Shown here piece by piece: positions 767 through 63,560 of a DNA stretch of 64,000 nucleotides. The position numbers and the translations under genes are program-made. The notes beneath the pieces were generated by a model. The model was not told the origin of the DNA, searched no databases, and saw only the letters and a list, made by a program, of their open reading frames with translations. Numbering within the stretch: position 1 is the first letter of the stretch; every line of letters starts with the position of its first letter. The stretch comes from a virus, in the UHGV virus genome UHGV-1363143. One strand, 5' to 3'.

Positions 767-2585
<1,819 letters not shown>

Positions 2586-6045: not shown

Positions 6046-6049
6046 CTCC

Positions 6050-8218
6050 TTAAAGCTTTTCTTTTTGAGCGTTAGCATAGATTTTTGCGTCGCTATCATT
6101 ATTATGAGCAACTCTATCAGCTCTTTCAGCTTCCTTACCTGCACCAAATCTTTCATCTAAAGCTAAATATCCTGTTATTCTAGATACACCTTGTATTTTT
6201 CTAGAACCACAATTAGGGCATTCTTCTTCAGTTCTTAATAACTGTCCACATTCTTTACAGTATCTAACGTGGAAGTTAATTCCGATATATCCCATATTGG
6301 TATTAGTGAAAGTCCAAGTAATTATTTTTTCTATTTCTTCTGGTGTAGGATAATCATCTAATTCAATATAAGAAATTCTTCCACCATTACATAATTCGTG
6401 GAATGGAGCTTCCTTTTGGATTTTCTCCTTAACAGATATCTTAAATCCTGGATTAATATGATATCCATTAGTATAGTAAGCATGGTCTGTTACTCCTTTT
6501 ATTTCACCGTACTTAGCTTTGTCTATTGCAATAAATCTACCGCAAAGACCTTCTGATGGTGCAGCATAACAGCTCCAATTTAATTTATCTATTTCTTTAT
6601 ACTTATCACAGTATTCTCTAATCATTCTTACTACAGTATCAGCTATTTCTAAAGCTTTTTCATCTTCACCATGATGTTTACCGATAGCAGCCATTAACAT
6701 TTCATGTATTCCAATAAATCCTATTGCATAAGAACCTTGTTTTAAGATAGGTTCAATAGAATCATTTGGCCCAATTTCTTCTGCTCCCACATACATATTA
6801 TTTTCAGTTAAGAAAGGAATGTCTTTTCCTTTTAATTGCTTTAATACACTATATCTGTATAATAATGATTCTCTAGTTAAATCAAGCATTTTTAATAAGC
6901 TATCATATAAGAACTTAATCTTTTCTTCATCTGAACATCCAGTTTCTTTTTGGTGTAATGAAGCTTCTATACCTAATCTAGGTAAATTGATTGTTGTTGG
7001 TGCAATATTGCCCCTTCTCTTAGCTCCTTTAGGCCCATTGATATTATCAATAGTACTTGTTCTACATCCCATTGTGCTTATTCTTACTCCTTGCTCATGT
7101 AAAGGTAAGTTATAAGAAGCATCAATATTTAAGAATGTTGGGTTTAATCTTCTTGAAGCTACTTCACAAGCTATTTTGTATAAGTAGTAATATGGATCAC
7201 CAGGATTTCTATTAACTCCTGACTTAACTGCGAATACCATATTAGGGAATATTAATTGCTCACCAGCACCTAATCCTTTTCCATATTCTATTAATGCATG
7301 CTTACATACTAATGCAGCATCGTCATCCTTAGGTAAACCTATATTTAAAGAAGAGAATACTATTTGAGATCCACTTCTTGATTCCATAGTAGATAAATTG
7401 TACATTACTGATTGCATGGCTTGGCCTACAGCTTTATCAAGCTTAGCCTCAACTCTTGCTTTTATAACATCTTCAGGTTGACCAACCATTAATGCTGAAT
7501 ATTCTTCATATATTTCATCTCTTGTAGCTTTTACAAATACAGCCATATCATTATCGAAGTCATCTATACTTTGTCCTCCGAACATTTGATTTTGAGCACA
7601 TTGTAATAAGATACAAGCTAATTCAGCAGCAACATTAATTCTTTTAGCTGGTCTAATTGTTCCGTATGAAGTTTTAAAACCTGTCTTCAATGGTTCTAAG
7701 CTATGAGAGCAACAATTAAATGTTAAGTTAAAAGCATCTAAATCATGAAGATGATAATCTCCTTGCTCATGTGCTTTCGCAATATGTTTAGGCATGTTAG
7801 CTAAGTTTTGCCACTTATTTGATTCAGAAGCTATTCTTAATAGCTTTGCTCCAAAGTTATTACCAACATTACCATTATCTCTATCAGTATGAACACCAAT
7901 CTTTCTAATAGCTTTCATTATGTCAGATTTAGTTTCTCTTACTTCATTTCTTTCTTTTCTATAATCTAAATATGCATCTTTAGTTAATCTAAATCCATTT
8001 ACATATATAGCTGTTTGAATGAAATCTTGTAGTTTTTCAACTGTGATTTCTGTTTTATTTAACTCTGATATTTTAGCTTCAACTACATCTAAAATAACAT
8101 TAAGAACTTCAGCGTCTATTATTTGTTTTGCACTTTTAGCAGCATTAATAACTGATGCAGCTACCTTTGTTCTATCATAATTTGTTTTTCTACCATCTCT
8201 TTTTATAATTGTAATCAT
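6050..8218 (-). CDS. nrdD: anaerobic ribonucleoside-triphosphate reductase NrdD
   Basis: 722 aa with a C-terminal Zn ribbon (CKECG...CPNCG) and the glycyl-radical motif RITGYLA. Confidence 0.9.
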   Translation of the reverse strand: MITIIKRDGRKTNYDRTKVAASVINAAKSAKQIIDAEVLNVILDVVEAKISELNKTEITVEKLQDFIQTAIYVNGFRLTKDAYLDYRKERNEVRETKSDIMKAIRKIGVHTDRDNGNVGNNFGAKLLRIASESNKWQNLANMPKHIAKAHEQGDYHLHDLDAFNLTFNCCSHSLEPLKTGFKTSYGTIRPAKRINVAAELACILLQCAQNQMFGGQSIDDFDNDMAVFVKATRDEIYEEYSALMVGQPEDVIKARVEAKLDKAVGQAMQSVMYNLSTMESRSGSQIVFSSLNIGLPKDDDAALVCKHALIEYGKGLGAGEQLIFPNMVFAVKSGVNRNPGDPYYYLYKIACEVASRRLNPTFLNIDASYNLPLHEQGVRISTMGCRTSTIDNINGPKGAKRRGNIAPTTINLPRLGIEASLHQKETGCSDEEKIKFLYDSLLKMLDLTRESLLYRYSVLKQLKGKDIPFLTENNMYVGAEEIGPNDSIEPILKQGSYAIGFIGIHEMLMAAIGKHHGEDEKALEIADTVVRMIREYCDKYKEIDKLNWSCYAAPSEGLCGRFIAIDKAKYGEIKGVTDHAYYTNGYHINPGFKISVKEKIQKEAPFHELCNGGRISYIELDDYPTPEEIEKIITWTFTNTNMGYIGINFHVRYCKECGQLLRTEEECPNCGSRKIQGVSRITGYLALDERFGAGKEAERADRVAHNNDSDAKIYANAQKEKL

Positions 8219-13390: not shown

Positions 13391-14452
13391 TTAAATAAGA
13401 TTTTTGTTTATATAATCCATTATTGTATTTAACCTTTGATTATAATTACCGCCAACTTCAACAATTTTATCTTCAAATCCTCTTTCGATATACATATGTT
13501 TAAGTCTTTGGTGTAATTTTTCTCTTTTTTCTTGGTCGCCGTTAAGTCTTTGGCCATCTGATACCCACTCAACGTCTGGCTTAAGTAAAAATACTACATC
13601 ATATTTATCAGGATCTACACAAGCTTCTACTTGTGCATTTCTCTCACCCATATATAAAATGCTATAATATTGGGTAATAGTTGCATCTGTATCAAAGAAA
13701 CATAATTTATTAGCACATCTTAAAGCTTCGTAATCTTGCTCAACTTGTTGATGAGCAATTCTAGAAAAGTCTTGAGTAGTAAATATCTCCTCATTTCCTC
13801 CAAGGAATCTTTGAGCATAATATCTACCTACTTCTTCACTCCAAGAGGTGTGATATAATTTAGCCAATGATTTAGTTAAAGTAGTTTTCCCACAACTTTC
13901 ACTTCCAGCTATTAATACTTTCTTAGTAAAGAAAGGTCTTGCAGGTCCTAATATATGATCCCAATGTTTGATAGGATTGCTTCTAATTTCAGTAGCACTA
14001 ATGTTATAAGTAGTTCTCATTGGATCAAATAGATCTACCTTAGCATTAGGGAAATACTCTTCTAGCTTTTCTACATATTCATGCTCTCCACAAAAGAAAA
14101 CATCTATATTGTCTCCTACTGCTCCTTTCATTAGTTCAGCCCACATTGGCCATCCATTAGGATACTCAGGTATATTAGATTCATCTAATTTAACTACTTT
14201 GATGTGAGGCATATCTATAAGCTCTTGAGATAACCATTGTATTCTAAGGTTAACATTAATTTCAGGAATGCCTGATTCTTTACAGATTCTTCTGCTTCTT
14301 TCTATATTGTCACTTACTACTACATAAAGTTTTTGAACCTTTGTGGCAGCATTTAATATAGCTGTTAAATGTCCTCTATGTGGAGGAAGGAATTTACCAA
14401 AGTAAACTCCAACCTTAGGCATATCATTTAAATTGAAAATTGAACCACTCAT
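13391..14452 (-). CDS. nadR: NadR-like bifunctional NMN adenylyltransferase / ribosylnicotinamide kinase (no HTH domain)
   Basis: GKFLPPHRGHL nucleotidyltransferase motif near the N-terminus, and a Walker A AGSESCGKTTL in the C-terminal kinase domain. Confidence 0.75.
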   Translation of the reverse strand: MSGSIFNLNDMPKVGVYFGKFLPPHRGHLTAILNAATKVQKLYVVVSDNIERSRRICKESGIPEINVNLRIQWLSQELIDMPHIKVVKLDESNIPEYPNGWPMWAELMKGAVGDNIDVFFCGEHEYVEKLEEYFPNAKVDLFDPMRTTYNISATEIRSNPIKHWDHILGPARPFFTKKVLIAGSESCGKTTLTKSLAKLYHTSWSEEVGRYYAQRFLGGNEEIFTTQDFSRIAHQQVEQDYEALRCANKLCFFDTDATITQYYSILYMGERNAQVEACVDPDKYDVVFLLKPDVEWVSDGQRLNGDQEKREKLHQRLKHMYIERGFEDKIVEVGGNYNQRLNTIMDYINKNLI

Positions 14453-15133
14453 TTATTTCACCTCTTTTATTTGAGCCTTTTTCCATGAATATAATCCAAA
14501 TATAGAATTGCATAGGTAAACTATCCACATAATTAATGTAGCCATCTCTCCTACACCATTTATTAAAGAGAATGCCCACATGATTATTGATACTACATTG
14601 ATAATAACCCATATCACCCATTGCTCCATAAATTGTTTAACCATTAATATCATTGCAATGATAGATAGAATTGTTGAAGTTGAATCTAAGAATGGTAGAT
14701 AATTACCTAAAGACTTTAAGAAGAATCCATAGAAAATAACTAAGGAAACTGATATTCCGACTAATCTAATTCTTCCTTCTGTGCTAAGACTTTTTGATTC
14801 TATTTCTCCATCATTCTCTTCCTTAGCTTTCTTCCACATATAAAGACCTATAAATTGCATAGGCAAGTAATATAACGCATTTAACATTACTTCTCCATAG
14901 AAGCTAGCTTGGTAAGATAAAATAGCATAAGTAGAAACATTAATAGCACCAAATAAATAATTTAATGACATTCTCTTAGCTACTAGGATTACAGATAAGA
15001 TACCTGTTAATGAAGATACAATCGCTAAGGGACTATCTCCCCAATAAAGGCTTAAACCTAGTGTAGATAATGTCGCAACTGTTACCCATAAAATTTCATA
15101 AAGCTTCCAGTTTTTAAATATTGTTTTGTTCAT
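14453..15133 (-). CDS. pnuC: PnuC nicotinamide riboside transporter
   Basis: 226 aa polytopic membrane protein; the LYEILWVTVATLS...GILSVILVAKR...YWGD pattern is PnuC-like. It abuts the nadR-like gene. Confidence 0.75.
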   Translation of the reverse strand: MNKTIFKNWKLYEILWVTVATLSTLGLSLYWGDSPLAIVSSLTGILSVILVAKRMSLNYLFGAINVSTYAILSYQASFYGEVMLNALYYLPMQFIGLYMWKKAKEENDGEIESKSLSTEGRIRLVGISVSLVIFYGFFLKSLGNYLPFLDSTSTILSIIAMILMVKQFMEQWVIWVIINVVSIIMWAFSLINGVGEMATLIMWIVYLCNSIFGLYSWKKAQIKEVK

Positions 15134-19181: not shown

Positions 19182-19761
19182 CTTTTTTGTAAATCTAATT
19201 AATAATATAATGTTTCATCTTTTTAGAATAATCTCCTTTCAACACGAACTTACGTTCTTATCATATTTTAGCATATTTCCAATATATACTCAATAATAAA
19301 TACATTTAACAAAAGTATTTATTATTCACAAAAAAAGCGTAACATTAACAATAATATTAGATTTTTCTTACTTTCGCAAGTGTGGACTATATCATCATCT
19401 CATAATTACTAATTTTAGCCCTATTGCTAGTTCTAGTTTTATGAGAATGCCTCTTGTTTCACGCAGAGTTACCTTTCGGCACTTTGCTAGTCTCTGAACC
19501 TTCTTCCACCCTGGCATATAATTATATGTTACATTGGAAGCTTGGCTGCTGATTCCCCATTATTAAGGTCCTTAGCACCATCATATTTAATGATAGCTTT
19601 TATTTCAGCTTAGACTATCCTTAGTTATTTTTTCTGCCTTTCGGCGACATTCACGCTTGTCCTTACGGACTACGTTGTAGTTAACTTAGGCTTTAGGGAT
19701 TGTTCCAGCAATTAAAGAGGTACGCACACTACGTCACCGTAATATGGGCCGATGAGTTCAG
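19182..19761 (-). ncRNA. candidate self-splicing group I intron (ORF-less) interrupting the UvrD-type helicase gene
   Basis: About 580 nt with no ORF and higher GC than its surroundings. It has two cGAAAg tetraloop hairpins on the minus strand. The 5' exon ends in U (gtt) and the insert ends in G. The exon join restores YQYIV|DESHD (motif II). Confidence 0.5.
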
Positions 19762-20407
19762 CAACGATATATTGGTATTGTCTATTGATTTCAGATTTGA
19801 CTTCAGGGAATTGTTCTAACAATCTAACCGTCTTATAAATTAAATCATCAAAATCTACACAGTTATCTTGCATCATTCTGGAATGATAGAGTTGATAGAG
19901 TTCTGCGAATTGTCTTTCTATTGTATTGGTTGATTCTCTCAACGCTTGACTTGGACTTATTAGCTGACATTTATAATCTGATATTTTCCATAATACCTTA
20001 TCAGCTTCAAAATTGTAACCAGATGTTTTAATGATTTCTTTCATTAATTTCTTGCAATCTTCAGTATCGCATATACTAAAAGATTTAGTAAGTCCAATAT
20101 AATTTGCATATTTTCTTAAAAATCTACTGCATACACTATGGTATGTACCGACCATTATACTATTTGCTTCAGGTCCTATAGTAGCAGTTACTCTTTCTTT
20201 GATTTCCATAGCTGCTTTCTTAGTAAATGTAAATAATATAATTTTATCAGCCGGTATTCCGCTTTTAATCATGTTAGCTGTTCGAACTACTAAGGTAAAA
20301 GTCTTACCAGCTCCTGGACCAGCTATAACCATTGAAGGTCCATGAATATCTATTGCGGCTTCCTTTTGTTCATCATTAAGTCTATTAAATAATTCTGATA
20401 GTTCCAT
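19762..20407 (-). CDS. UvrD/PcrA-family helicase, 5' exon (Walker A GPGAGKT to motif II start)
   Basis: AGPGAGKTFTLV Walker A. The ORF then runs into a nonsense tail (AELIGPYYGDVVCVPL) that is intron sequence. Confidence 0.6.
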
Positions 20408-42272: not shown

Positions 42273-43520
42273 TTAACTAGCTTCATCTACATATTCTAAT
42301 TGAGGATCTCCTTCTTTAGTTAAACACTCTTTAGTCAATGTAATCTTAGATACTTTTGTATCAGGTAAATCAAACATGTAATCTGTCATGAATTCTTCCA
42401 TAACTGATCTTAATGCTCTAGCCCCTGTACCTGATTCTATTGCCTTATCAGCTATAGCTTCTAAGCATTCTTTTTCAAATTCTAACTCTATACCATCAAC
42501 TTCAAATAGAGTTTTGTATTGTCTTACTATAGAATCTACAGGTTCAGTAAGAATACTTACTAATGCATCTCTATCAAGTTCTTCTAAAGTACATATAACT
42601 GGTAATCTACCAAGTATTTCAGGCATCATACCAAACTGTCTTAAATCTTTTGGAGTTATTTTGTGAATTAACTCATTATAAGAATGTTCTTTAGAAGCTA
42701 CTTCTTTATTTTGAGTAAGACCTATTTTAGATTTCTTATAAATTCTTCTTTGAATGATTTTTTCTATATTCTCAAATGCGCCCCCACAAATGAATAATAT
42801 ATTAGAAGTATCTATTTGATAACATTCTTGATTTGGATGTTTTCTATTCCCTGACATAGGTACAGATACAACATTTCCTTCAAGCATTTTTAATAGTGCT
42901 TGTTGCACACCTTCACCAGAAACGTCTCTAGTAATAGATACATTTTCTCCTTTACGACCAATCTTATCTATTTCATCTAAAAAGACGATTCCATTTTCAG
43001 CTGCTTTGATATCACCATTAGCATTATCTATTAACTTCTTTAGAACTGTTTCTACATCATCACCTACATAGCCTGATTGAGTTAAACTAGTTGCATCTTG
43101 TATTGCATAAGGTACGCCCATTTTCTTTGCCATAGTTTCAACAAATAGTGTCTTACCACTACCAGATGGTCCTACCATAAGTACATTAGACTTTTTCAAC
43201 TTCATATCTGTAGCTACATTATTATTGTAGAAAGTTCTCTTATAGTGATTATAAACTGCTACTGCTATAACTTTCTTAGCTCTTTCTTGATTAATAATAT
43301 AATCATCAAAGTGCTTTTTCATATCTGATGGTTTTAATCCAACTTCTAATTCTCTGCTATTAACTTTATAGTTAGCCATAGCAGTTTCTATTGCATCGTT
43401 ACATATTTTCACGCAATGTTCACATATAAGTAATTCAGAATTTATATCTGATCTTAGTAATAATGTACTTCCATCAATGTCGTATGAACTCCCGCAATAT
43501 CCGCATGTTAATTTATCCAT
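42273..43520 (-). CDS. clpX: ClpX ATP-dependent protease ATPase subunit
   Basis: N-terminal C4 zinc-binding domain (CGYCG...CEHC), and the [44 protein letters not shown] motif. Confidence 0.85.
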
Positions 43521-43541
43521 AAGTCATTCCTCCATTTTTGT

Positions 43542-44510
43542 CTATCTGTATTCAATATTGAGTTTATCTAGCACATGTGCCATTCCTAGTCCCTTTTCAG
43601 GAACCCATATTCCTTCATCATTATATGTTCCGCCTCTCATACAGTAATCGTACATTTCAGGATGTGATTCTTTCATTCTCTGAAATCTATTTTTACCTTT
43701 TTCCATATGACAGCCGAAAATACACCCAACACAGCCTGTACGCTTTTCTCCTGTTGTTTTGAATTTCTTTTCATTATTATCATAAACAACTTCACCATAC
43801 ACTTCTGCTATGTCAAGTTTATATTCATAAATGTATTGAAGAATGTCTTGTTCTGTCCAAAAACCTAATGGATTGGACTTAGGCTCACTGCAATTAAATG
43901 CATTACAGCCACCATTATTTAAATATCTTATTTGCCTGTTTTGACTTTCATCGGCCATAACTCCAGTTATAGGAATTCGGCCAGTTTTTTTATTATATTT
44001 TTTGAAAGGTCTTTTTTTCATAACATCGCAACACTTCTCACTTATTTTGAAGTCAGCTGAATTTAATAAGTAATGCCACTTATCACTCAGTTTACCTGCT
44101 CTGCCTTTTTCATCTCCATGCAATAACTTATTTCTATAAGCTGAGCTTAAATTTTGGGTAGTAAGTTTTCTAAATGCCATAGCTTGAGATTTAGAAATGC
44201 AAGGATACCCATAATGAGTTATTGTTTGAGCATAATTCATATCAGGTCTTATAACTTCATCAGCAATTTCTTTCGCTTTGTCAATTACTTCTCTATATTC
44301 CAAAGTAGTATTACAAAATACACTAGGTATATCTGGATATCTATTTTTTACTATATGATGTAAAACTGAACTATCTTTACCTCCACTTATAGATGTATAT
44401 AATCCATTAGTAGTAAATTGATATACAGCTTCATCAAGTCGCCTTTCAGTTTTTGCAATCTTAAGCTCTAATGGCAATGCTTGTGCCATCTTTAGTTCTC
44501 CTATATTCAT
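43542..44510 (-). CDS. PAPS reductase-family PP-loop protein
   Basis: SGGKDS PP-loop about 40 residues from the N-terminus, and a Cys cluster at the C-terminus. Confidence 0.55.
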   Translation of the reverse strand: MNIGELKMAQALPLELKIAKTERRLDEAVYQFTTNGLYTSISGGKDSSVLHHIVKNRYPDIPSVFCNTTLEYREVIDKAKEIADEVIRPDMNYAQTITHYGYPCISKSQAMAFRKLTTQNLSSAYRNKLLHGDEKGRAGKLSDKWHYLLNSADFKISEKCCDVMKKRPFKKYNKKTGRIPITGVMADESQNRQIRYLNNGGCNAFNCSEPKSNPLGFWTEQDILQYIYEYKLDIAEVYGEVVYDNNEKKFKTTGEKRTGCVGCIFGCHMEKGKNRFQRMKESHPEMYDYCMRGGTYNDEGIWVPEKGLGMAHVLDKLNIEYR

Positions 44511-44726
44511 TCCCGCTTCACCTATTAATTACGTATTGCCGTATGTTAATAGGAAAATCGTGATTTCAGTTATATAACTATAACCTTCAGCTCATTAGCT
44601 TAGGAGGGGATTTTTTAACGTCTTTACCTCATCGCTTTTTTCGCAACTATTCAAATGGCTAATCGGAATAATTACTATGACAACCTTGGTTAGCCAAGGA
44701 CTTGAAGCGTTTTGGGAATGTATATT

Positions 44727-45014
44727 TTAAGCAACTATTTTAAGATCTGCATATCCCTCATGCTTTGAACTTAGAATTTCAACATTAAGCAAAGCTCTAT
44801 GAGGGTATTGTTCATTATATTCATTGATAGCTAAAAGCATTTTTCTTTCTGCTTCCTCTTTACTAGATGCAACAATGTATCTATAATCTTTCTTTTCATT
44901 ATTTCTTCTAGTAAAATACTTAAGTTTAACCTTATAAACTGGTTCACTTAAGTTCGAGGACATTAATCTTCTGTTAACTTCATCTAAATAATTAATATCT
45001 ATAACAGCTTTCAT
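44727..45014 (-). CDS. hypothetical protein (95 aa)
   Basis: ORF. Confidence 0.4.
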   Translation of the reverse strand: MKAVIDINYLDEVNRRLMSSNLSEPVYKVKLKYFTRRNNEKKDYRYIVASSKEEAERKMLLAINEYNEQYPHRALLNVEILSSKHEGYADLKIVA

Positions 45015-45409
45015 AAAGTACCTCCTATATTCTTTTATTTTCTTTTGATGTATCTATATTAGAACTATTGCATTTTGGACACTTTGAGCCTTTGCTACCA
45101 CCATAAACGCAATATATACATCCACAATTTAAACATCTCGCCATAGTTATTACCTCTCATCATTTAAGCAATCTTGGCATATTCCATTTGGAGTAGAATG
45201 ATGAAAGTCCCCATAGCTATCCTTATAACAAAAATCAAAAGACTTACATTCAATGCAAGTTTCTAAAGCTATTAAAACTTTACCTGTAGGTGAATCAATA
45301 TAAAAATTTTGCTTCATATATATTCTCCTTACTTTCTACTTGGTTTTGGATAAGTAGCTGGTTTACACCTAACTACTCCACCTCCACCATTGTATGTTTT
45401 TTATTTGAG

Positions 45410-46024
45410 CTAGATAATCTCATCAATCAATCCCATTTCTAATGCCCTTTCAGGTGAAAGAAAGTTATCTCTCTCACATTCATTCCACATTGTAGCAGGA
45501 TCTGTCTTTCCATTAGTCGAATTGGCCATCATCTCAGTAAGCTTTTTCTTCATTTCCATAATTCTAGCAGCATGAATTTGAATATCTGTAGCTTGTCCTT
45601 GATAGCCACCTAATGGTTGATGAATCATAACTTCTGAATTAGAAGTACAATATCTATGTCCTGGTTCTCCTTGAGATAATAAAAATGCACCCATAGATGC
45701 TGCCATTCCCATACACACTGTATGAACTGGTGATTTAACTTTATTCATTGCATCAAGTATTGCCATTCCATCTGTAATAGATCCTCCTGGACTATTAATA
45801 TACATAGTTATTGGATCATTACTTTCTGAATCTAGGAATAAAAGCTGTGCTTGAATTAACACAGCCATTCTAGATTCTACTTGTCCAGTAAGCATAATTA
45901 CCCTATCCTTTAATAGCCTAGAGAATATGTCCATTGATCTTTCTACTCTTCCATCTTGTTCTATAACCATTGGAACTGTTAATGATCCTATTGGTTGTAA
46001 TGTTGTACCATAAAAATTATTCAT
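45410..46024 (-). CDS. clpP: ClpP protease proteolytic subunit
   Basis: [16 protein letters not shown], the catalytic Ser in GMAASMGA, and the MIHQP motif. Confidence 0.9.
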
Positions 46025-46056
46025 AATCTTGTCTCCTTTGTATATAAAATTGTTTA

Positions 46057-46911
46057 TTATTCTGCTGAGTTTCCTCTCATATCTATGATTGCATCAGAAC
46101 CTGAAACAGTAGGTAACTTTCCGTCCCACTTTTCAATCTTCTTGTATTCAACCATTTCACTTGTTATAGATTTTTGTAATTCTTCATTTGCTCTAGCTTC
46201 ACCTTGAGCTTTAATTAATTGAGCATCAGCTTCACCTTGAGCTTCTACTTTTTTTCTTTCAGCTTCAACGATTGCTTTTTCCTTTTTTTGTTTCTCAGCT
46301 TCTAACTCTTGAGCTGCCTTACTTCTTTCTGTTATAGCAGCTTCAATAGTTGAATCAACTCTAGTTTGAGTTAAGTTAGCACTTTCAACTACAACTCCAA
46401 ATTCAGCTAATGATTTCTTTAAATGTTCAGTAATGGCTCTATTAAGCTCACCCTTCTTTTCCATATGAGCTTCAAGAACACTATATTGAGAAGTCACTTC
46501 ATTAACTAATGTCTTTATTTTTCCTATAACAATGTTATTGATTATATCTTCTCCACTCATTCCTCTGTATCTGCTATATAAATCTGGAACTTTATCAGCA
46601 TCAAATGAATATGACATTTCAAAATCAACATTCATTTTTCCATCTCTAGCGATTACATCAAATGAGTTATCTTTTTTTTCATCTCTTTGCATATATAGTT
46701 GTTCTGTAGCTACACTGTATTCAGTTACTTTTTTTGTTGGAGATATCAAATGCCACCCTTGAGGCAAGATTTCATCTTGGACTCCACCATTCATAGAATA
46801 CTGTACTCCAACATATCCAGCAGGTATTCTTTCTATACATATAAATGTACCTGCTGCTCCACCCAATACTAATACTCCTGCAATAATTGCACCTATCATA
46901 CTTTTTTTCAT
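46057..46911 (-). CDS. SPFH/band-7 (prohibitin/stomatin-like) membrane protein
   Basis: N-terminal TM helix, an SPFH domain, and a C-terminal coiled coil ([38 protein letters not shown]). Confidence 0.75.
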
Positions 46912-47092
46912 TTTGTTACTCCTATCTATTCATATTATTTTTGAATTTATTTGATATTTTTATTGCCAGCAATCCTATCCAATAAAATAAATTTGATAAC
47001 AAGAAGAATAAAATTGCTAGTACACATAAAACTAGCACATAAAATACTATATTCATTTAGTCCTCCTACCTTAGTTATCTATACTGCTATAT

Positions 47093-47314
47093 TTAAAACC
47101 CTGTATTAAATTTTGCTGTTATTTTAGCTTTCTTAAATCCATATTTGTCAGTTAAATGTTTAATTATTAACTCATCAGTTGTATAAAAGTATTCCGAATC
47201 CTCTTGTAATGATGGAGCTTCATCACACATGTTTTTGAATTCTTCTTTTGTATATTCTTTTTCATTGGATAAAATGCAATGACACTCATATCCATATACA
47301 TCATATAAAAACAT
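47093..47314 (-). CDS. hypothetical protein (73 aa)
   Basis: ORF. Confidence 0.35.
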   Translation of the reverse strand: MFLYDVYGYECHCILSNEKEYTKEEFKNMCDEAPSLQEDSEYFYTTDELIIKHLTDKYGFKKAKITAKFNTGF

Positions 47315-47345
47315 ATTTTATGTCTCCTTTTTTAGTAGTTCCTCT

Positions 47346-47902: not shown

Positions 47903-48568
47903 CTATTCTAAAGTCCAAGTACCTTTAAATAATGCCATAATAACAATGATTTCTGGTCTTATTCCTGGTGACGCTTCAGTTATAGCGAATCCTGGTACAC
48001 CATCTTTAGAAGTAATGTAACCTGTTGCTTCTGTACCAAACATATCTACTGTAAAGAAAACCTTATTACCTGCGATCGCCATTTCTAATGCTTTTGGACC
48101 ATTTATTGTTTCAGATTTCTTTTTCTTAAACTCTAAATTTACAAAATGAGAATCTATTGAAGCTGGGAATACAGCATTTTCTGTTACTATAAGTAAAGTC
48201 TTACTGTCGATGTCATATCTAATTACATCTCCTTCTTCACTGATAAAAGTTCCTCTATAACCATTATCAAATTCATCTACCATTTCAATAAAATTATAAG
48301 TTAACTCTGATTCATCTACTTTTTCTTTTATATCCTTTAAAATCATTTTCATGAACTCTGGGAATGAAGATTCTCTGTTTGATTCAACTTCTTCTTTCAT
48401 TGATTCACTTATTCCATCACAGAATTCTTTCTTATCACAGTTATCACAATCACATTCATGTTCTTCTCTATTTGTTTCCTCAGCTGTAATAGCTCCTAGT
48501 ATCATTTTTATTGCATCTTCCCCTGATATCTCTCTCATTCTTACTTCACTCATTTTATATTTCCTCAC
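47903..48568 (-). CDS. hypothetical protein (221 aa)
   Basis: ORF with a Cys/Asp-rich N-terminal segment. Confidence 0.4.
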   Translation of the reverse strand: MRKYKMSEVRMREISGEDAIKMILGAITAEETNREEHECDCDNCDKKEFCDGISESMKEEVESNRESSFPEFMKMILKDIKEKVDESELTYNFIEMVDEFDNGYRGTFISEEGDVIRYDIDSKTLLIVTENAVFPASIDSHFVNLEFKKKKSETINGPKALEMAIAGNKVFFTVDMFGTEATGYITSKDGVPGFAITEASPGIRPEIIVIMALFKGTWTLE

Positions 48569-49043
48569 TTTCGCTTTTTCTCTTTATATCCTTGTCTATC
48601 ATCAAACATCCAAATAAATGATCTAATTCATGTTGAAATACTACTGCTTCTAGGTCTTTAAGTAGTTTCTTTACTTTTTGTCCATTTTCATTAATGTACG
48701 CTACTTTTAACATCTTGTATCTTCTTGTAAGACTTTTAGTCTCTGGTATGGATAAACAAGATTCACTAAAGAAACCTATTTTATTTGGATACATCTTAAT
48801 GATTTCTGGATTTATGCAAACAGTAATCTCTTCTATATTTCTTGGATTAACCATTGCAAAAGCCATCTTATTTACTCCAATTTGTGGAGCTGCTATTCCA
48901 AGACTTGTATTTCCTTCACCGAAATGAGCTTTTAATGAAGTAATCAATTCTTGTTCTTTTTCTACAGATTCAATAGGTTCAGAAATTTTTCTTAACACCT
49001 TTAAATCTTCTTCTGATTCAATAGTTAGTATTCTATTATTCAT
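48555..49043 (-). CDS. def: peptide deformylase
   Basis: The GIAAPQIG, ESCLSIPE and QHELDHLFG motifs. Confidence 0.8.
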   Translation of the reverse strand: MNNRILTIESEEDLKVLRKISEPIESVEKEQELITSLKAHFGEGNTSLGIAAPQIGVNKMAFAMVNPRNIEEITVCINPEIIKMYPNKIGFFSESCLSIPETKSLTRRYKMLKVAYINENGQKVKKLLKDLEAVVFQHELDHLFGCLMIDKDIKRKSESEEI

Positions 49044-50074: not shown

Positions 50075-50149
50075 TGGCGGAACTAGTAGGATTCGAACCT
50101 ACAACCTATCGGTTAACAGCCGAGTGCTCCACCTTTGAGCTGTAGTTCC
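50075..50149 (-). tRNA. tRNA-Asn (GUU)
   Basis: Manual cloverleaf with acceptor ggaacta/tagttcc, T-loop GGTTCGAATCC, anticodon loop cuGUUaa, and CCA encoded. Confidence 0.7.
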
Positions 50150-50934
50150 ATAATTCCAGCGTCCGTATGGACCTGGAGATCTCCTTCTATCTTAGATAGA
50201 TGAGCTAATGTAAGCACCACATTTTATAATCCCTTGCATGGATTGGGCAGGCACCATTATTTTTACATGCATGGTTGCATTGACCTAGCTTACTTTTTGT
50301 TCTTTCGGTCTTATTGATTATTACTATCCCACTCGTGAATAGCATATTTGTTTGAAACAATCGCCTGCACAATGCAAGCCCCAGAAAGAGTTTATCTTTC
50401 AAAATTAATGCAAGGTGGGGTGGCGTATCCCACATCTCTAACCATAACAATATATGTAGTATAGACTGCCTGTTTCTACTTCTTGCATTTTTATATCTAA
50501 TTGCTTACTTGAAAAACACGAGCTAATTACATTAGCTACTAAAACTCATAAGCATAAATATACCTTCTTATAAGAGTTCCTAATCTATGTCTAAATAAGA
50601 AGTATATTAGTTTCATAAGGATATAGATTAGGTTTCACCTTACTTTTTATTATTGCTTGAAAAAACCCTAAAAATTACTAAGCAATATATATATTCTTCT
50701 CACTTCCGAAACCAGCACTCCATGTCCTTCGAATATATAGTTTTTTTGTTTCGCTGATCTGGTCCTCTATGCAAAACTTTAAAGGGAAATTTGCTTACCG
50801 CCACAGTTCCTTCCTGCTCGTCCATAAGCTATTAAGTAGATAAATTACTCCTACTTAACTAGTGCGTCTCCAGTGAGCATAGTAAATCAGGCCAATCAAA
50901 TCAGCTAAATACCAGAGGCTTGAGAGGTTCTATT

Positions 50935-51008
50935 TGGAGCTCCTACTCAGAATCGAACTGAGAACAGAAGATTACAAGTCTACCGTTTTACCTTTAAACT
51001 ATAGGAGC
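50935..51008 (-). tRNA. tRNA-Thr (UGU)
   Basis: Cloverleaf with acceptor gctccta/taggagc, anticodon loop cuUGUaa, and CCA encoded. Confidence 0.6.
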
Positions 51009-51164
51009 ATATAATACTTTCGGTGTGCTACAGAAATCTAAGTTTCTGTTAATAGGCAAGGCTGTCTATATCAGGTATTCAGTAATTATGTACACTTTTA
51101 ACTGAACCATACTATATATCCCTACACGCTACTCTTAACTATAAGAACACCGAAAATATTATAA

Positions 51165-51239
51165 TGGTACTCCATGGGGGACTCGAACCCCCGATACACG
51201 ATAGAAAGTCGTGTGGCTTAACCACTTGCCGAATGGAGC
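51165..51239 (-). tRNA. tRNA-Glu (UUC), probable
   Basis: Cloverleaf with T-arm ggggg/ccccc and anticodon stem cacga/tcgtg; the loop cuUUCua has an unusual U37. Confidence 0.5.
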
Positions 51240-51318
51240 ATAATTTGTGCTATCTCTTTTAGCTTGTACTTCGCCAAGGATGATAGCTATCCTTATCTGT
51301 ACAAATTACAGATTTCTC

Positions 51319-51390
51319 TGGTGCAGATTGCTGGAATCGAACCAACCCTTATAATCTTATAGAAAACGCTCTACCTTGAGCTAATCTGCA
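51319..51390 (-). tRNA. tRNA-like element with intact acceptor, D and T arms but no foldable anticodon stem (possible pseudo-tRNA)
   Basis: gcagatt...ggttcgattccagcaatctgcacca carries the right length between the D and T arms, but the segment UUUUCUAUAAGAUUAUA cannot form a 5-bp stem. Confidence 0.3.
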
Positions 51391-52418
51391 TATTATATTT
51401 CCAGAGCTTTCAGATCCTATCTCTGGTACTCAACTTTTGCAGCATTATTGATTCTCTGCTTATCCACATTCTCTTGAATGTATTGAGTTATGCCTGCCTT
51501 GTTTAATGAGTGGCTTATCTCATCTAATAGTACACTACTCTACACCATTGATTATATCAACCTTGCGGGCTGTTCAGGCTGCTACCCCTTATACGCTCTC
51601 CGATATAGAACAATCAAGCTTTTGCGAAGCTATCATGCGCTTCATTCACTTTTCAGTGTGAAGCATTAAGACACTTTCATGCACTACGAGGATGAACTTT
51701 CGCTTTTATATAGAATTAATATCTGTAAATTCTTAAATATTGTTTTATTTCCCAAAACATATAGCTTAAATTCATCATTCATTAAATTTTCAAACTGTAG
51801 ATGTGTCATCCTATCAGCTCGCTTCCCTTTTGAGGAAGTAAATACTGGACACCTACATAGCTTTCACTCAACTAAGTTACTAACTGGTAATAAATCATAC
51901 TCTAGGATACCTCCGTCTCTCAACTTCTAAGGTCCTATTTCATTTTTATTACTGGCCAATGCTCTTGCCTGTTAAACTCGAACTACTAACCTTCTGCTAT
52001 AAATAGTTTATTTCATTAGTTTTGGTGTGTGCTATCTGATTACCAGTCAGAAACTCCTTCAGAGAGTATATCCCCTACTTTCTTACCAGCGTTGCCCATA
52101 AGCGAGCTTTCGCACCTAACTTATAAAACCTTATCCAATAATCGTCTTTATCTCTTCCGCCTACTGAATAACATTTAAATTTATGCAGATTGCTTGAATT
52201 AACCTAATATTTCAAGGCGAGAATTTGTTAAATTCCCTTTACGCACATCACTGTACGCTATTCATGTCAAGCCATGTTTACTTATTTTTTTTATAGAACC
52301 TAGTACAGATTCTTGTATGTAATTCCTACCTCTATTACATACTAGGCTCTTGCCTACCGATGTTTTCCTTATTTAAAACTAAGTACTGAAAAGAAAACTC
52401 ATAACCAAAAATCGTACT

Positions 52419-52494
52419 TGGTGAAGGTAGAAGGGTTTGAACCTTCGGCCCCAGCATTAAAAGTGCTATGCTCTACCAACTGAGCTATACCTTC
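52419..52494 (-). tRNA. tRNA-Lys (UUU)
   Basis: Cloverleaf with D-arm gctcagttggtagagc, anticodon loop cuUUUaa, and CCA encoded. Confidence 0.75.
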
Positions 52495-52501
52495 ATATTA
52501 T

Positions 52502-52578
52502 TGGTAGTGGATATAAGAGTCGAACTTATCACCTTCTGCGTATCAGGCAGATGCTCTAACCAAATGAGCTAATCCACT
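52502..52578 (-). tRNA. tRNA-Ile (GAU)
   Basis: Cloverleaf with anticodon stem tctgc/gcaga and loop cuGAUac. Confidence 0.75.
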
Positions 52579-52584
52579 ATATTA

Positions 52585-52669
52585 TGGTGGGAACTGATGG
52601 AGTCGAACCACCCGAGCTAAAGCAACAGATTTACAGTCTGCCCCGCTACCATCTACGGTATAAATTCCC
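52585..52669 (-). tRNA. tRNA-Tyr (GUA), type II (long variable arm)
   Basis: 85 nt, anticodon loop cuGUAaa, long variable arm. Confidence 0.65.
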
Positions 52670-52763
52670 GTATTGACATTGTTAATTGGCTAAATTATTA
52701 TAATTGTAAATGTACTATACTTACAAAGAACTAGATCAATCTTCGGATTGGTCTTTTTCTTAT

Positions 52764-52850
52764 TGGCAGGGGCTGTAGGATTCGAACCTACGTGGTGTTG
52801 TGCACAATGGTTTTGGAGACCACCGCCCTCGACCTCTAGGCAAAACCCCT
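52764..52850 (-). tRNA. tRNA with Trp anticodon (CCA) and an atypical 15-nt variable arm
   Basis: Acceptor and anticodon arm (gguggu-CUCCAaa-accau) resemble bacterial tRNA-Trp, but the gene is 87 nt with the insert ugugcacaacaccac before the T-arm. Confidence 0.5.
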
Positions 52851-52985
52851 GTAAATCTCCCGATTAGTTTAAAGACATTTATGGGACTGGTCATTAGAGA
52901 GGTCTTATGTATAAATTAAAACGTTATGCATAAATATATTATGTTAACATCTATAAAAAGACTACTGATTTGAAAAACTTTTTTA

Positions 52986-53072
52986 TGGCGGAGAGTCTGG
53001 GACTCGAACCCAGAAGCCATTACTGACCAACAGTTTTCAAGACTGTCTGACTACCAATTATCACAACTCTCC
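52986..53072 (-). tRNA. tRNA-Ser (UGA)
   Basis: 87 nt with acceptor ggagagt/actctcc, anticodon stem acagt/actgt, loop cuUGAaa and a long variable arm. Confidence 0.7.
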
Positions 53073-53090
53073 ATGTTTATAGGAGAAAAC

Positions 53091-53170
53091 GAAATAGGTG
53101 ATAGGAATTGAACCTACACTTACTGCCATCCCTATCTCTAGCTGGCCTTGCTTCATTCTCCTGTTGCAAC
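53091..53170 (-). tRNA. tRNA-like remnant (T-arm-like gtagg-ttcaatt-cctat only)
   Basis: An 80-nt spacer between tRNA-Gln and tRNA-Ser contains a T-arm-like hairpin and a 7-bp aggagaa/ttctcct pairing, but no canonical cloverleaf. Confidence 0.25.
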
Positions 53171-53245
53171 TGGCGGAGGTGGAAGGGATTGAACCTTCGA
53201 ATGATGGAATCAAAATCCATTGCCTTACCACTTGGCGACACCTCT
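53171..53245 (-). tRNA. tRNA-Gln (UUG)
   Basis: D-arm gccaagtggtaaggc (Gln-like), anticodon loop uuUUGau, weak 1-72 pair, and G73. Confidence 0.65.
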
Positions 53246-53446
53246 ATATAAAATGGCAATTTTACCGTTTGCCAAACGTTCTATGGTTTATACAAAAACT
53301 CATATCGTAAAATTTAAACGGGCTTAAGTGCCCTAAATTCTGGCATTTCACCACGGGTATTTAGCAACCCAGGATTTTTATTATTGAATCTAATAAATTA
53401 AGATCCGTTCTAAGCACTGCAAAAAAATCTTAAAAAAATTTCGCTT

Positions 53447-53522
53447 TGGTCGGAGTTACAGGACTCGAACCTGTGATCTCATGGTCCCAAACCATGCACC
53501 TTACCATCTAGGCCAAACTCCG
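53447..53522 (-). tRNA. tRNA-Pro (UGG)
   Basis: cggagtt acceptor, anticodon stem catgg/ccatg, loop uuUGGga. Confidence 0.75.
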
Positions 53523-53531
53523 ATATATAAA

Positions 53532-53623
53532 TGGCGGAGGACACAGGATTCGAACCTGCGGAGGAACTTTCGTCCCTCGAATGCTTAGCAAGCACCTGCC
53601 TTAAACCTCTCGGCCAATCCTCC
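53532..53623 (-). tRNA. tRNA-Ser (GCU)
   Basis: 92 nt with ggaggat acceptor, loop uuGCUaa and a long variable arm. Confidence 0.7.
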
Positions 53624-53713
53624 ATATTAATAGCTCATTTTGGTCAGTTGAGCTAAACTGTAGTCTATAAGACTAAAAAATGAACATTGGAATTTAATAT
53701 TGAATTGAATTAG

Positions 53714-53790
53714 TGGCGACTCACAAGGGGATCGAACCCTCGACCTCTGGCGTGACAGGCCAGCACTCTAACCATCTGAGCTAGTGAGCC
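53714..53790 (-). tRNA. tRNA-Asp (GUC)
   Basis: Anticodon stem ctggc/gccag with loop cuGUCac. Confidence 0.75.
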
Positions 53791-53796
53791 ATATTA

Positions 53797-53885
53797 TGGT
53801 GTCGTGAGAAGGATTCGAACCTCCAACCACCTGAGTCTTGTTAATGGAGCTCCCTCAGTGCGTATACCAATTCCGCCACCACGAC
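53797..53885 (-). tRNA. tRNA-Leu-like gene with an expanded 18-nt anticodon loop
   Basis: Leu-type D-arm gcggaattggtatacgc and good acceptor/T arms, but ctgag-[ggagctccattaacaaga]-ctcag replaces the 7-nt loop. Confidence 0.4.
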
Positions 53886-57814: not shown

Positions 57815-58819
57815 ATGTTAATGTCAAAGAATTCTAAGAAGTATGTTTTAGTACTTGACTTGGGTAAAGGTGTAGCGAAAGGTTTAGGCTGTGAAATCAC
57901 AGATAGTATACCTAATCCAGAATCATTAAAAAAATCTATGTTTGAAACAAAGAGTTATGATTTAAATAAAGGTTATACTGAATTACAAGGAAATTCTCAT
58001 AAAGTAGATTTCAATGGTAGCTCAGTAATTTTAGGTGAACAAGGCGTAGATCGTAGCTTTGAAACTAGTAAAACTACTCCACTTCATCAAATGTGTGCTT
58101 ACACATTAATTAGCCAATATCTTGAACCTGATACTAAGGATAATGAAATATATCTTGTTCTTGCTTGTCCTATAACAGTATTAAAGAGTGATAAAGCTAA
58201 GCAAGAATATAAAAACCTTATTAAGGGTGATGGACCTATATCAATAACTGTTAATGATAAATATTATGAATTTGAAATTAAAGATATCTTAATTAAGGCT
58301 GAAAGTTCAGGAGTATTATATTTAATGCCTGAAGAATTTAAAGATAAAAAAATTCTAGTGGTAGACTTTGGTGGTCTTAATATGACTAATACTATCTTTA
58401 CTAATGGAGTATGTGTTAATCCTGAAAATGATAGATTTGCTGAAGAATGGGGATCTGTTGAATTAATCAATAAAGTAAGTAAACACTTAACAGATTATTC
58501 TAAAGGTAATATTGTAGATTTCCAAACTTCTGAAGAAGCTTTAAATAGAGGTCACTTATTAGAATATGGAAAACCTGATTTAGCTTCTACTGAATATATA
58601 GAAAGAGCTAAACAAGAGTTTATAGATGACTCTCTTAAAAAATTAGCTAGACATAATGTAAGAACAAAGAACTTAGATAAAATAATCTATATTGGAGGAA
58701 CTAGTTCTTACTTAAAAGACCAAATAAAAGCGTTACCTAATGGTCAAATCACAGATAATCCTCAATGGTCTTCCGTAGAAGGCTTATTAAAAATCGCTAT
58801 TAAAAAATATATTAAATAA
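57815..58819 (+). CDS. actin-like segregation ATPase (ParM/StbA/Alp family)
   Basis: Three actin-fold phosphate/adenosine motifs spaced as in ParM: LVLDLGKG, ILVVDFGGLNMTNT and IIYIGGTSSYL. Confidence 0.55.
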   Translation: MLMSKNSKKYVLVLDLGKGVAKGLGCEITDSIPNPESLKKSMFETKSYDLNKGYTELQGNSHKVDFNGSSVILGEQGVDRSFETSKTTPLHQMCAYTLISQYLEPDTKDNEIYLVLACPITVLKSDKAKQEYKNLIKGDGPISITVNDKYYEFEIKDILIKAESSGVLYLMPEEFKDKKILVVDFGGLNMTNTIFTNGVCVNPENDRFAEEWGSVELINKVSKHLTDYSKGNIVDFQTSEEALNRGHLLEYGKPDLASTEYIERAKQEFIDDSLKKLARHNVRTKNLDKIIYIGGTSSYLKDQIKALPNGQITDNPQWSSVEGLLKIAIKKYIK

Positions 58820-62744: not shown

Positions 62745-63560
62745 ATGTTTATGCCTAAAACTATAGCTATAGGTACCTTTAAAGGTGGAGTTGGAAAAAC
62801 AATGACTACTTTTAATTTAGCAGGTATATTAGCTGAGAGAAATTACAAAGTATTGTGTATAGATGTAGATCCTCAAGGAAATCTAACAAGTAATCTTGGA
62901 ATTAATAGAGCTAATAATGGCTTAGTTGGTGTTGAAGCTATATTTAGTGAAAACTCTACAGTTAATCTTAACGATATAATAATAAAAAGTCCAATAGAGC
63001 AACTACCAACATTAGATCTTTTACCTAGCACAGTTTTGCTTCATAAATCTGAATTATTTATGGCATTAGCTCCTGCTAGAGAACTAAAGTTAAAGTATTT
63101 CATGATGGATAATAAAGAGGTTCTTGATAACTACGATTATATTTTAATAGATACTAATCCTAGTATGGGATATCTTAATCAAAATGCATTTGTAGTTGCA
63201 GATAAAATTATTATGCCAGCAACTGCAGATTTATCAGATTTAGATGGAATACATCTATTCTGTGCATTATGGGATGATTTAAGAGAAAAATTACGTATAG
63301 ACGATAATATAGCTGCTGTAGTTACTACTAAGAATGACAAAAGAGTTTCTCTTGATAGAAGTTTTATTGAACATATTAAAACTACAGAAGATAATGAAGA
63401 TATAGCAGAATTATTAGTAGATACAATAATTCCTGTCAATGTTACTCTTAAGGAAGCAGCAATGAGCTGTCAACCTATTAATCTTTATAATAAGAATTGT
63501 ATTGGTTATCAAGCTTATAAAAAATTGGTAGATGAGCTATTCGAAAGAGGTGTATTCTAA
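62745..63560 (+). CDS. parA: ParA/Soj-family partition ATPase
   Basis: Deviant Walker A KGGVGKT (IAIGTFKGGVGKTMTT) and the typical ParA length and downstream motifs. Confidence 0.85.
   Translation: MFMPKTIAIGTFKGGVGKTMTTFNLAGILAERNYKVLCIDVDPQGNLTSNLGINRANNGLVGVEAIFSENSTVNLNDIIIKSPIEQLPTLDLLPSTVLLHKSELFMALAPARELKLKYFMMDNKEVLDNYDYILIDTNPSMGYLNQNAFVVADKIIMPATADLSDLDGIHLFCALWDDLREKLRIDDNIAAVVTTKNDKRVSLDRSFIEHIKTTEDNEDIAELLVDTIIPVNVTLKEAAMSCQPINLYNKNCIGYQAYKKLVDELFERGVF

Follow-up and report, generated by a model that had tools for sequence, protein, structure and literature searches.

The 64,000-nucleotide stretch of the virus genome UHGV-1363143 analyzed here, referred to below as the window, encodes homologs of ClpX and ClpP and, beside clpP, an SPFH (band-7) membrane protein. 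An earlier sequence-only reading of the same DNA took the neighboring clpP and SPFH genes to mirror the bacterial stomatin-NfeD protease pairing, but with a true ClpP. We find it probable, instead, that the element possesses its own complete ClpXP as an old phage unit, and that the SPFH gene belongs to a separate, recently inserted prohibitin-like cassette that has no dedicated tie to ClpP.

Identity of ClpP and ClpX

The three genes are intact and lie on the minus strand, at exactly the coordinates that the sequence-only reading had assigned to them:

42273-43520, minus strand, clpX, 415 aa (NF003745, 538.5 bits against a cutoff of 359)
45410-46024, minus strand, clpP, 204 aa (PF00574 CLP_protease, 224 bits against a cutoff of 20.2; NF001368, 262 bits against a cutoff of 249)
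46057-46911, minus strand, SPFH gene, 284 aa (PF01145 Band_7, 78.7 bits against a cutoff of 23.6; phrog_200, 228 bits)

In ClpP the residues Ser110 (within AASMG), His135 (IHQP), and Asp186 (ERDNF) align to the motifs of E. coli ClpP, so that the catalytic triad, the absence of which had been named as grounds for abandoning the earlier proposal, is in place. ClpP structures in the PDB match the protein at E ~1e-64, and its score against the stricter equivalog model TIGR00493 is 249 bits, under the cutoff of 308.6. ClpX aligns to its E. coli counterpart over residues 4–410 and scores 516 bits against TIGR00382 (cutoff 371), the equivalog matches covering residues 3–411. Its motifs include Walker A (GPSGSGKT, residues 117–124), the GYVG pore loop (150–153), Walker B (FLDEID, 180–185), RKH (226–228), an IGL tripeptide (266–268) at the position of the IGF loop that docks to ClpP, and the sensor-II arginine within GARALR (366–371). 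Profile scores and intact motifs together bear out the claim that complete clpX and clpP homologs, the latter a true ClpP, are present. Neither ClpP nor ClpX contains a transmembrane (TM) or other hydrophobic segment.

The N-terminal cysteine pairs of ClpX, CGYC (residues 6–9) and CEHC (33–36), align with those of E. coli (Cys6/9/33/36). The spacer between the pairs is longer, and Pfam zf-C4_ClpX was not reported for this protein at E<=0.01; for these two reasons we regard the zinc-binding domain as diverged, and the divergence hints that the choice of substrate or adaptor may be altered.

Gene Order and Ancestry of the clpP-clpX Pair

Read 5' to 3' along the minus strand, the genes of the region are those for peptide deformylase, orf221, orf70, orf91, orf73, orf44, SPFH, ClpP, orf55, orf39, orf95, a PAPS-reductase-like protein, ClpX, orf256, orf352, and an SSB-like protein, and then those for GyrB, SSB, and GyrA. 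In the window clpP and clpX are not adjacent; the gap of 1,889 nt between them holds four open reading frames (ORFs), which are listed here with the deformylase gene:

43542-44510, minus strand, PAPS-reductase-like gene (PF01507, 57 bits; phrog_424, 164 bits)
44727-45014, minus strand, orf95, small ORF (ORF call; kept in sister contig L057)
45025-45144, minus strand, orf39, small ORF (ORF call; kept in L057)
45150-45317, minus strand, orf55, small ORF (ORF call; kept in L057)
48555-49043, minus strand, peptide deformylase (PF01327 Pep_deformylase, 113 bits)

The closest relative in IMG/VR, L057, is a 241-kb viral contig whose ClpP and ClpX are each 95% identical to those of the window. More distant members of the clade that were further examined are L092–L095, contigs of 226–249 kb with ClpPs 68–82% identical to the window ClpP. 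Three of them (L093, L094, and L095) share the order deformylase gene, one ORF of ~185–250 aa, a variable slot, clpP, clpX immediately after it, two ORFs, an SSB-like gene, and further on gyrB, SSB, and gyrA. In L092, whose slot contains one 92-aa ORF, clpP and clpX are separated by the insert, and a LAGLIDADG ORF interrupts the latter gene. Downstream of the pair, two conserved ORFs, the SSB-like gene, and the gyrase genes follow in all four contigs; the corresponding orf256 and orf352 of the window have no match in Pfam or PHROGs, and orf352 also has no tblastn match in phages. In all examined members of the clade the deformylase gene and clpP are ~2.5 kb apart, and the synteny was seen in L054, L057, and L092–L095. 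The PAPS-reductase-like gene does not lie between clpP and clpX in L093–L095, the insert being specific to the sub-lineage of the window. Adjacency of clpP and clpX is ancestral in the clade, and a 1.9-kb insert split the pair in the sub-lineage to which the window belongs.

In a neighbor-joining tree the ClpPs of this phage clade form one group that is distinct from cellular ClpPs; of the latter, the nearest named ones are those of Clostridium spp. (66–67% identity). The ClpPs of other huge phages are scattered across the tree (polyphyletic), and the gene was therefore acquired on several independent occasions. The phage clade of ClpX spans 58–93% identity; the cellular ClpX sequences listed are at most 56% identical, with no clear donor. 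Because the phage clades of both proteins stand separate from their cellular homologs, clpP-clpX is, as judged from these comparisons, an old phage lineage that was inherited vertically, with no recent capture from a host. The phylogeny that had been proposed as a means of deciding between host-derived genes and an ancient phage lineage thus comes out for the latter.

Neither L093 nor L095 has anything in the slot upstream of clpP; in L094, a 245-kb cousin, the slot holds a gene with an Acb2/Tad1-hairpin domain (L094:7552-7911). Domains of this type belong to a family of anti-CBASS/anti-Thoeris sponges, and the presence of such a gene suggests that the slot gathers accessory or counter-defence genes. 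A search with PADLOC gave no defence-system match for SPFH, ClpP, or their small neighbors, and only generic AAA matches for ClpX.

Two further observations concern the genes between and around the pair. The clpX gene of L092 (11578-14256) is broken up: an AAA fragment of 154 aa is followed by an ORF for a LAGLIDADG endonuclease and then by a 284-aa C-terminal part of ClpX; in L058–L061 the tblastn match to ClpX is likewise in two pieces, 430–1,200 bp apart. The interruptions suggest that clpX of related phages has been invaded by a homing element of the intron or intein type. Of the genes within the window's insert, the PAPS-reductase-like gene (phrog_424) shows weak PADLOC similarity to BrxP/SspD, suggestive of a role in DNA modification, and orf55, orf39, and orf95 have no family match in Pfam or PHROGs.

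The SPFH Protein and Its Cassette

An SPFH family profile built from 20 members was compared with the solved structures of the PDB. Prohibitin 1/2 matched best (E-values of 6e-32 to 1e-28; 103–114 bits), followed by erlin (~1e-17 to 1e-13) and HflK/HflC (~1e-14 to 1e-13); weaker matches were obtained for QmcA (~1e-10), stomatin (~1e-9; 40–41 bits), and Pyrococcus stomatin (5e-5; PH stomatin, 25.8 bits). The AlphaFold2 model of the protein (pLDDT 80.3) has a TM helix at residues 3–24, an SPFH domain, and a 62-residue helix (187–248), and with this model Foldseek placed PHB1/PHB2 at the top (E=2e-16), then HflC, erlin, and HflK. On the strength of profile and model, we classify the window SPFH protein as prohibitin/HflKC-like and not stomatin-like. 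SPFH genes are widespread in phages, 690 phage records being matched.

The N-terminus carries basic residues (MKK) ahead of a single TM helix (residues 3–27), and basic residues precede the TM segment family-wide. The relatives in L069, L104, and L113 have a signal peptide with a lipobox cysteine instead, and relatives of the Bacteroidota type are lipoproteins. From these features an extracytoplasmic position is predicted for the SPFH domain, as in HflK/C and prohibitin. A lipoprotein anchor, with which the family is annotated in PHROGs, was considered for the window protein and rejected, as the protein lacks a lipobox even though relatives have one.

The position of the SPFH gene beside clpP was compared among relatives by blastn, the break points between the window and L057, L092, and L098 defining the boundaries of an insertion:

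46050-47335, minus strand, insertion of 1,286 bp comprising orf73, orf44, and the SPFH gene (blastn break points against L057)
46922-47056, minus strand, orf44, small single-pass membrane protein of 44 aa, ending 10 nt before the SPFH start
47093-47314, minus strand, orf73, present in the window and absent from L098 (blastn break points)

Homology between the window and L057 ends at 47336 and restarts at 46049, and only 8 bp lie between the break points in L057. The junction after orf91 exists in three states: orf73, orf44, and SPFH in the window; orf44 and SPFH in L098, whose SPFH protein is 94% identical to that of the window; and empty in L057 and L092. The orf73 gene, which has no Pfam family match, is thus a further insertion beyond the cassette formed by orf44 and SPFH. 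With L093–L095 as outgroups, insertion is more parsimonious than loss. The GC content of the cassette (0.307) is the same as that of the window, and its composition is not foreign.

The nearest homologs of the SPFH protein (64–71% identity) occupy four contexts other than the neighborhood of clpP, among them a site on a contig of Clostridium perfringens where D5 primase and FolD are the neighbors, the interval between GyrA and RecA on a 248-kb contig, and a site near NrdD on a 72-kb contig. When 53 SPFH loci of IMG/VR were searched by tblastn, none had ClpP or ClpX within 10 kb. The feature that does recur is a small single-pass ORF paired with SPFH, found in at least nine contexts besides the window, many of them unrelated. 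The window version, orf44, has the sequence MNIVFYVLVLCVLAILFFLLSNLFYWIGLLAIKISNKFKNNMNR; a homologous small TM ORF also lies directly upstream of SPFH in L087, L090, L096, L098, L001, and L005, and in the Bacillus phages B13 (g44; L099) and AR9 (g180; L100) and in Kayvirus (a longer MbpV; L101). The SPFH protein of L132 (6926-7831) begins with a similar segment (MGIVFFLMF...), which is apparently fused to it. By these comparisons the conserved partner of phage SPFH proteins is a small membrane ORF, represented by orf44 in the window, and not ClpP. Taken together with the indel, they make it most likely that the adjacency of SPFH and clpP arose through recent insertion of a mobile cassette, composed of a small TM protein and a prohibitin-like protein, into a hypervariable slot.

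In a separate comparison of two large contigs, L102 (339 kb) and L103 (387 kb), 78% nucleotide identity extends over the SPFH gene alone (6001-6831) and the flanks are without homology. As the identity is confined to this gene, SPFH appears to move between phage genomes.

Alternative Interpretations

Could the SPFH protein and ClpP nevertheless be functionally coupled, either as a membrane-associated proteolysis hub or as a co-regulated cage and cytoplasmic protease, and so form a stomatin-NfeD analog with a true ClpP? In favor of this, clpP lies next to the SPFH gene, as the sequence-only reading stated, and the two share a strand; the stop of the SPFH gene is 32 nt from the start of clpP, with an AAGGAGA ribosome-binding site between them, and since the gap is short and no terminator was predicted within it, co-transcription is plausible. 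It has also been proposed that NfeD1b stems from an NfeD-SPFH operon that recombined next to a ClpP gene (Hinderhofer et al., PMC2636767). A stomatin-NfeD pairing, however, calls for three things (PMC2636767, PMC4208085), namely an SPFH protein of the stomatin type, NfeD as its partner, and conservation of the operon, and none of the three applies here. The SPFH protein is of the prohibitin type; ClpP is devoid of a TM segment and of an NfeD domain (NfeD1b_N reaches 19 bits in Pfam, under the cutoff of 40); and the linkage is absent from L057, despite its nearly identical Clp proteins, and from L092–L095. In one cousin genome (ERZ22273556 NODE_1, 226 kb) an SPFH gene whose product is 66% identical to that of the window lies at ~149 kb and clpP-clpX at ~167.5 kb, 18 kb apart. 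The suggested parallel with stomatin-NfeD is therefore not upheld. The related suggestion that the SPFH protein scaffolds a membrane-associated protease fares no better: its SPFH domain is predicted to be extracytoplasmic and ClpP is a soluble, cytoplasmic protein, which makes direct scaffolding of ClpP by this domain unlikely, and the adjacency itself derives from the 1,286-bp insertion. Overall, functional coupling of the two proteins seems to us quite unlikely.

Several observations do weigh against the interpretation that we favor. The predicted topology of the SPFH protein is derived from the positive-inside rule and from the lipoboxes of relatives. In the census of 73 viral ClpP loci, which form 42 clusters at 90% identity and 24 at 70%, two of the 24 lineages have a phrog_200-type SPFH gene, in each case within 600 bp downstream of a true ClpP; both are unrelated huge phages, one a 339-kb contig with a ClpP-SPFH gap of 35 nt (L069) and the other a contig of 463 kb and high GC content in which a single 96-aa ORF separates the genes (L132). 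Under uniform placement of at most one SPFH gene per ~300-kb genome, ~0.2 such cases are expected against the two observed (nominal P ~0.02), a rough post hoc estimate from a null that is unrealistic for modular phage genomes. As regards the phage identity of the element, there are no virion or structural genes in the window, and ParA-like and actin-like partition genes are present at 57.8–63.6 kb; for both reasons a phage-plasmid or another large mobile element is possible.

Since SPFH stands beside a true ClpP in L069 and L132 as well, the two genes may be weakly but recurrently linked, and one may ask whether ClpP and a prohibitin-like (phrog_200) SPFH protein were juxtaposed independently in three unrelated huge-phage lineages, that of the window and these two, through a link that has been repeatedly selected. 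If so, the link might serve, for example, the coordinated control of membrane-protein turnover during infection, and would echo the proposed origin of NfeD1b; were it functional, Clp proteolysis would be connected with SPFH cages, a connection that so far has been known for no proteases other than those of the FtsH type and NfeD. Against this, the gene order is not alike in the three lineages, and the adjacency is shallow wherever relatives were found. The SPFH gene of L103 is 78% identical in nucleotides, and its product 87–91% identical, to that of L069, yet the two share no flanks and L103 has no ClpP within 6 kb. For the L132 SPFH protein, IMG/VR contains no relatives by which to judge how deep its adjacency to ClpP runs. 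We consider a repeatedly selected link doubtful.

The nature of the Clp proteins themselves can be read in two other ways. One is that the ClpP of the window is a ClpP-fold prohead protease acting in capsid maturation and not a partner of ClpX. Its matches in PHROGs are indeed head-maturation families (phrog_94 with 130 bits, as well as phrog_2976, phrog_133, and others), and the Atu_ph07 homolog is named "head maturation protease" in RefSeq. The model for ClpP-related head maturation proteases (NF045542) nevertheless gives 84 bits, below its cutoff of 120, in contrast to the above-cutoff score of NF001368; the matches to PDB ClpPs and the identity to Clostridium ClpP also speak against this reading, as does the position of clpX directly after clpP in cousin phages. 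The gene is located in a replication module, where its neighbors are replication and metabolism genes and no portal or capsid genes are nearby. With NF045542 below cutoff and the gene among replication genes, we rejected the prohead-protease identity, which is hardly tenable. The other reading, improbable but more credible than those above, keeps ClpXP and dedicates it to remodeling or destroying replication or recombination complexes in place of general proteostasis. Host ClpXP acts on lambda O and on MuA, both of which are recognized by the zinc-binding domain of E. coli ClpX, and it is this domain that is diverged in the window. The clpP-clpX genes also belong to a conserved block whose other members are SSB-like, gyrB, gyrA, and recA/uvsX genes, and a clpX gene near topoisomerase genes has been noted for Atu_ph07 as well (PMC6102473). 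This support comes from gene neighborhood, however, and the deformylase gene, a proteostasis gene, is an equally conserved neighbor on the other side; the conserved orf256 and orf352 downstream have no recognizable function.

Proposed Roles of ClpXP and the SPFH Cassette

In the interpretation that we favor, an old phage ClpXP beside an independently acquired SPFH cassette, ClpX would act as the unfoldase for substrates and bind, by way of its IGL loop, to a tetradecamer of ClpP whose Ser-His-Asp triad is normal. The genes occupy the early/replication module, between those for peptide deformylase and gyrase. As for activity and substrates, we infer that the pair would provide extra or re-specified cytoplasmic proteolysis during infection, the tasks of which might be quality control together with peptide deformylase and GroEL, the removal of particular host or phage proteins, or both.

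The description of these genes as a proteostasis toolkit, put forward in the sequence-only reading along with coordinates for groEL and the deformylase gene, is a fair one for a phage-type genome in which motif-intact clpX and clpP are accompanied by a deformylase gene ~2.5 kb and a GroEL gene 43 kb from clpP. Family matches confirmed both of the latter genes, the chaperonin gene being the following:

767-2368, minus strand, GroEL-type chaperonin (PF00118 Cpn60, 270 bits; phrog_5725, 569 bits)

No GroES-like gene was recognized next to it. An ORF of 194 aa near GroEL (3740-4324) has a sub-threshold match to Anti-TRAP (24 bits against a cutoff of 32); we take this match to resemble a DnaJ-type zinc finger, and the ORF might mark a co-chaperone-like protein.

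The SPFH protein, we infer, probably forms a membrane cage with one N-terminal anchor and its bulk outside the cytoplasm. It would travel with orf44 as a two-gene cassette that recently entered the hypervariable slot just upstream of clpP, where it is probably read through with clpP and would have no dedicated functional tie to it. Membrane proteins would be its likeliest targets, such as proteases of the FtsH type or factors of lysis or secretion; no FtsH gene is found in the window.

Comparison with Known Systems

Phage genes for ClpP, ClpX, and SPFH proteins have already been described, and huge phages with their own ClpXP, chaperonin, and deformylase are documented. Bona fide ClpP and/or ClpX are likewise encoded by phages of >200 kb such as Atu_ph07 (gp676/gp2), Sinorhizobium phage Phosso, Bacillus phage G (gp258), and the Lak phages (PMC7824862, PMC6102473). 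Seven Clp-family proteins are encoded by Agrobacterium phage Atu_ph07 (PMC6102473), which resembles the window in having clpX near topoisomerase genes. Jumbo-phage ClpP has been described as a patchy, probably host-directed peptidase, and jumbo-phage ClpX as a possible translocase or assembly chaperone (PMC7824862). In a 2026 catalog of jumbo phages clpP and htpB are among the commonest matches to "virulence factors", and gut Jug phages often carry CLP_protease. The ClpP and ClpX of named huge phages are 43–58% identical to those of the window, which falls into its own clade of uncultured gut contigs in the neighbor-joining tree, and the window clade differs from other huge phages in that clpP and clpX are an ancestrally adjacent pair. 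Compared with bacterial ClpXP (E. coli; Clostridium spp.), the window proteins align over their full length and have the same triad and ClpX motifs; they differ in being virus-encoded, in a ClpX no more than 56% identical to any of the cellular ClpX sequences listed, in the IGL tripeptide, and in the diverged zinc-binding domain.

Like prohibitin (PHB1/PHB2) and HflK/HflC, the SPFH protein has a TM anchor at its N-terminus, followed by the SPFH domain and a long helix of the coiled-coil kind. Identity to them is ~18–20%, and the window has a single gene with a 44-aa membrane partner in place of a heteromeric pair. Closer counterparts are the phrog_200 pairs mbpV-mbpS of Kayvirus, the description of which is available (PMC7150955), g180-g181 of AR9, and g44-g45 of B13; their SPFH proteins are 35–36% identical to that of the window, and a small ORF with an N-terminal TM segment lies directly upstream of SPFH or overlaps it, like orf44. 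The Kayvirus pair is located in the lysis region and the others elsewhere, whereas the window cassette is upstream of clpP, and the Kayvirus MbpV is longer (102 aa). The stomatin-NfeD operons (PH1511-PH1510; QmcA-YbbJ) resemble the window in that an SPFH gene adjoins the gene of a ClpP-fold protease on the same strand; in the window the protease is a soluble Ser-His-Asp ClpP with no NfeD OB-fold, and the linkage is not conserved.

What is new here is a well-defined clade of uncultured gut elements that have inherited clpP-clpX vertically as an old unit and in which ClpX may have an altered specificity. Three results may be of use. The window and L057 provide a precise natural pair of near-identical phages, one with and one without SPFH. 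Prohibitin-like genes of phages, as a generalization, move together with a very small membrane partner, in one case fused to the SPFH protein. Upstream of clpP, a hypervariable slot for accessory genes was identified, with an Acb2/Tad1-like gene in a cousin.

The Element, Its Host, and Other Features of the Window

The element is most likely an uncultured low-GC jumbo phage of ~240 kb from human gut metagenomes, with a Gram-positive Firmicutes host that is possibly Clostridium-like; the safest label is jumbo phage, possibly phage-plasmid. The GC content of the window is ~31%, and every ORF from 1 to ~55 kb is on the minus strand. Its proteins include replication proteins typed by PHROGs and an endolysin, and it has 14 tRNAs. 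An identical ClpP sequence is present on 11 metagenome contigs, human-gut assemblies among them, the longest in the 0.2–1 Mb class, and an identical SPFH protein is present on a 238-kb contig. Further genes encode NrdD/NrdG, primase, helicases, topoisomerase II subunits, UvsX/RecA-like, Rad52, and Mu Gam proteins, thymidylate kinase, UDG, a NadR-like NMNAT with a PnuC transporter, and a glucosaminidase-SH3 endolysin.

No match to the 5.2-kb region was obtained by megablast against 50,697 phage records, and a search for a cultured relative with a 552-aa ATPase returned only mycobacteriophage matches (29% identical); the searches thus yielded no cultured relative. Among genome contigs, the SPFH protein had relatives of at most 39% identity only, in assorted metagenome-assembled genomes with ClpP near none of them, and no host was assigned from this search.

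The remaining features of note are as follows:

50075-53885, minus strand, cluster of 14 tRNA genes (local GC raised to 0.37-0.39)
57815-58819, plus strand, actin-like partition protein (phrog_691)
62745-63560, plus strand, ParA-like partition protein (phrog_164)

The strand switches near 56 kb, and the two partition genes beyond the switch hint at plasmid-like maintenance or a phage cytoskeleton. Within the tRNA cluster, a 71-nt call of "tRNA-Tyr (ata)" at 51319-51389 is odd; it perhaps represents a pseudo-tRNA, or else the call is false. An ORF of 231 aa (19712-20407) matches only the N-terminal domain of UvrD/REP helicases and may be one piece of a split gene. The gene for the NadR-like NMN adenylyltransferase (phrog_3462) adjoins that of the PnuC NMN transporter (13391-15133), the two forming an NAD+ salvage pair.

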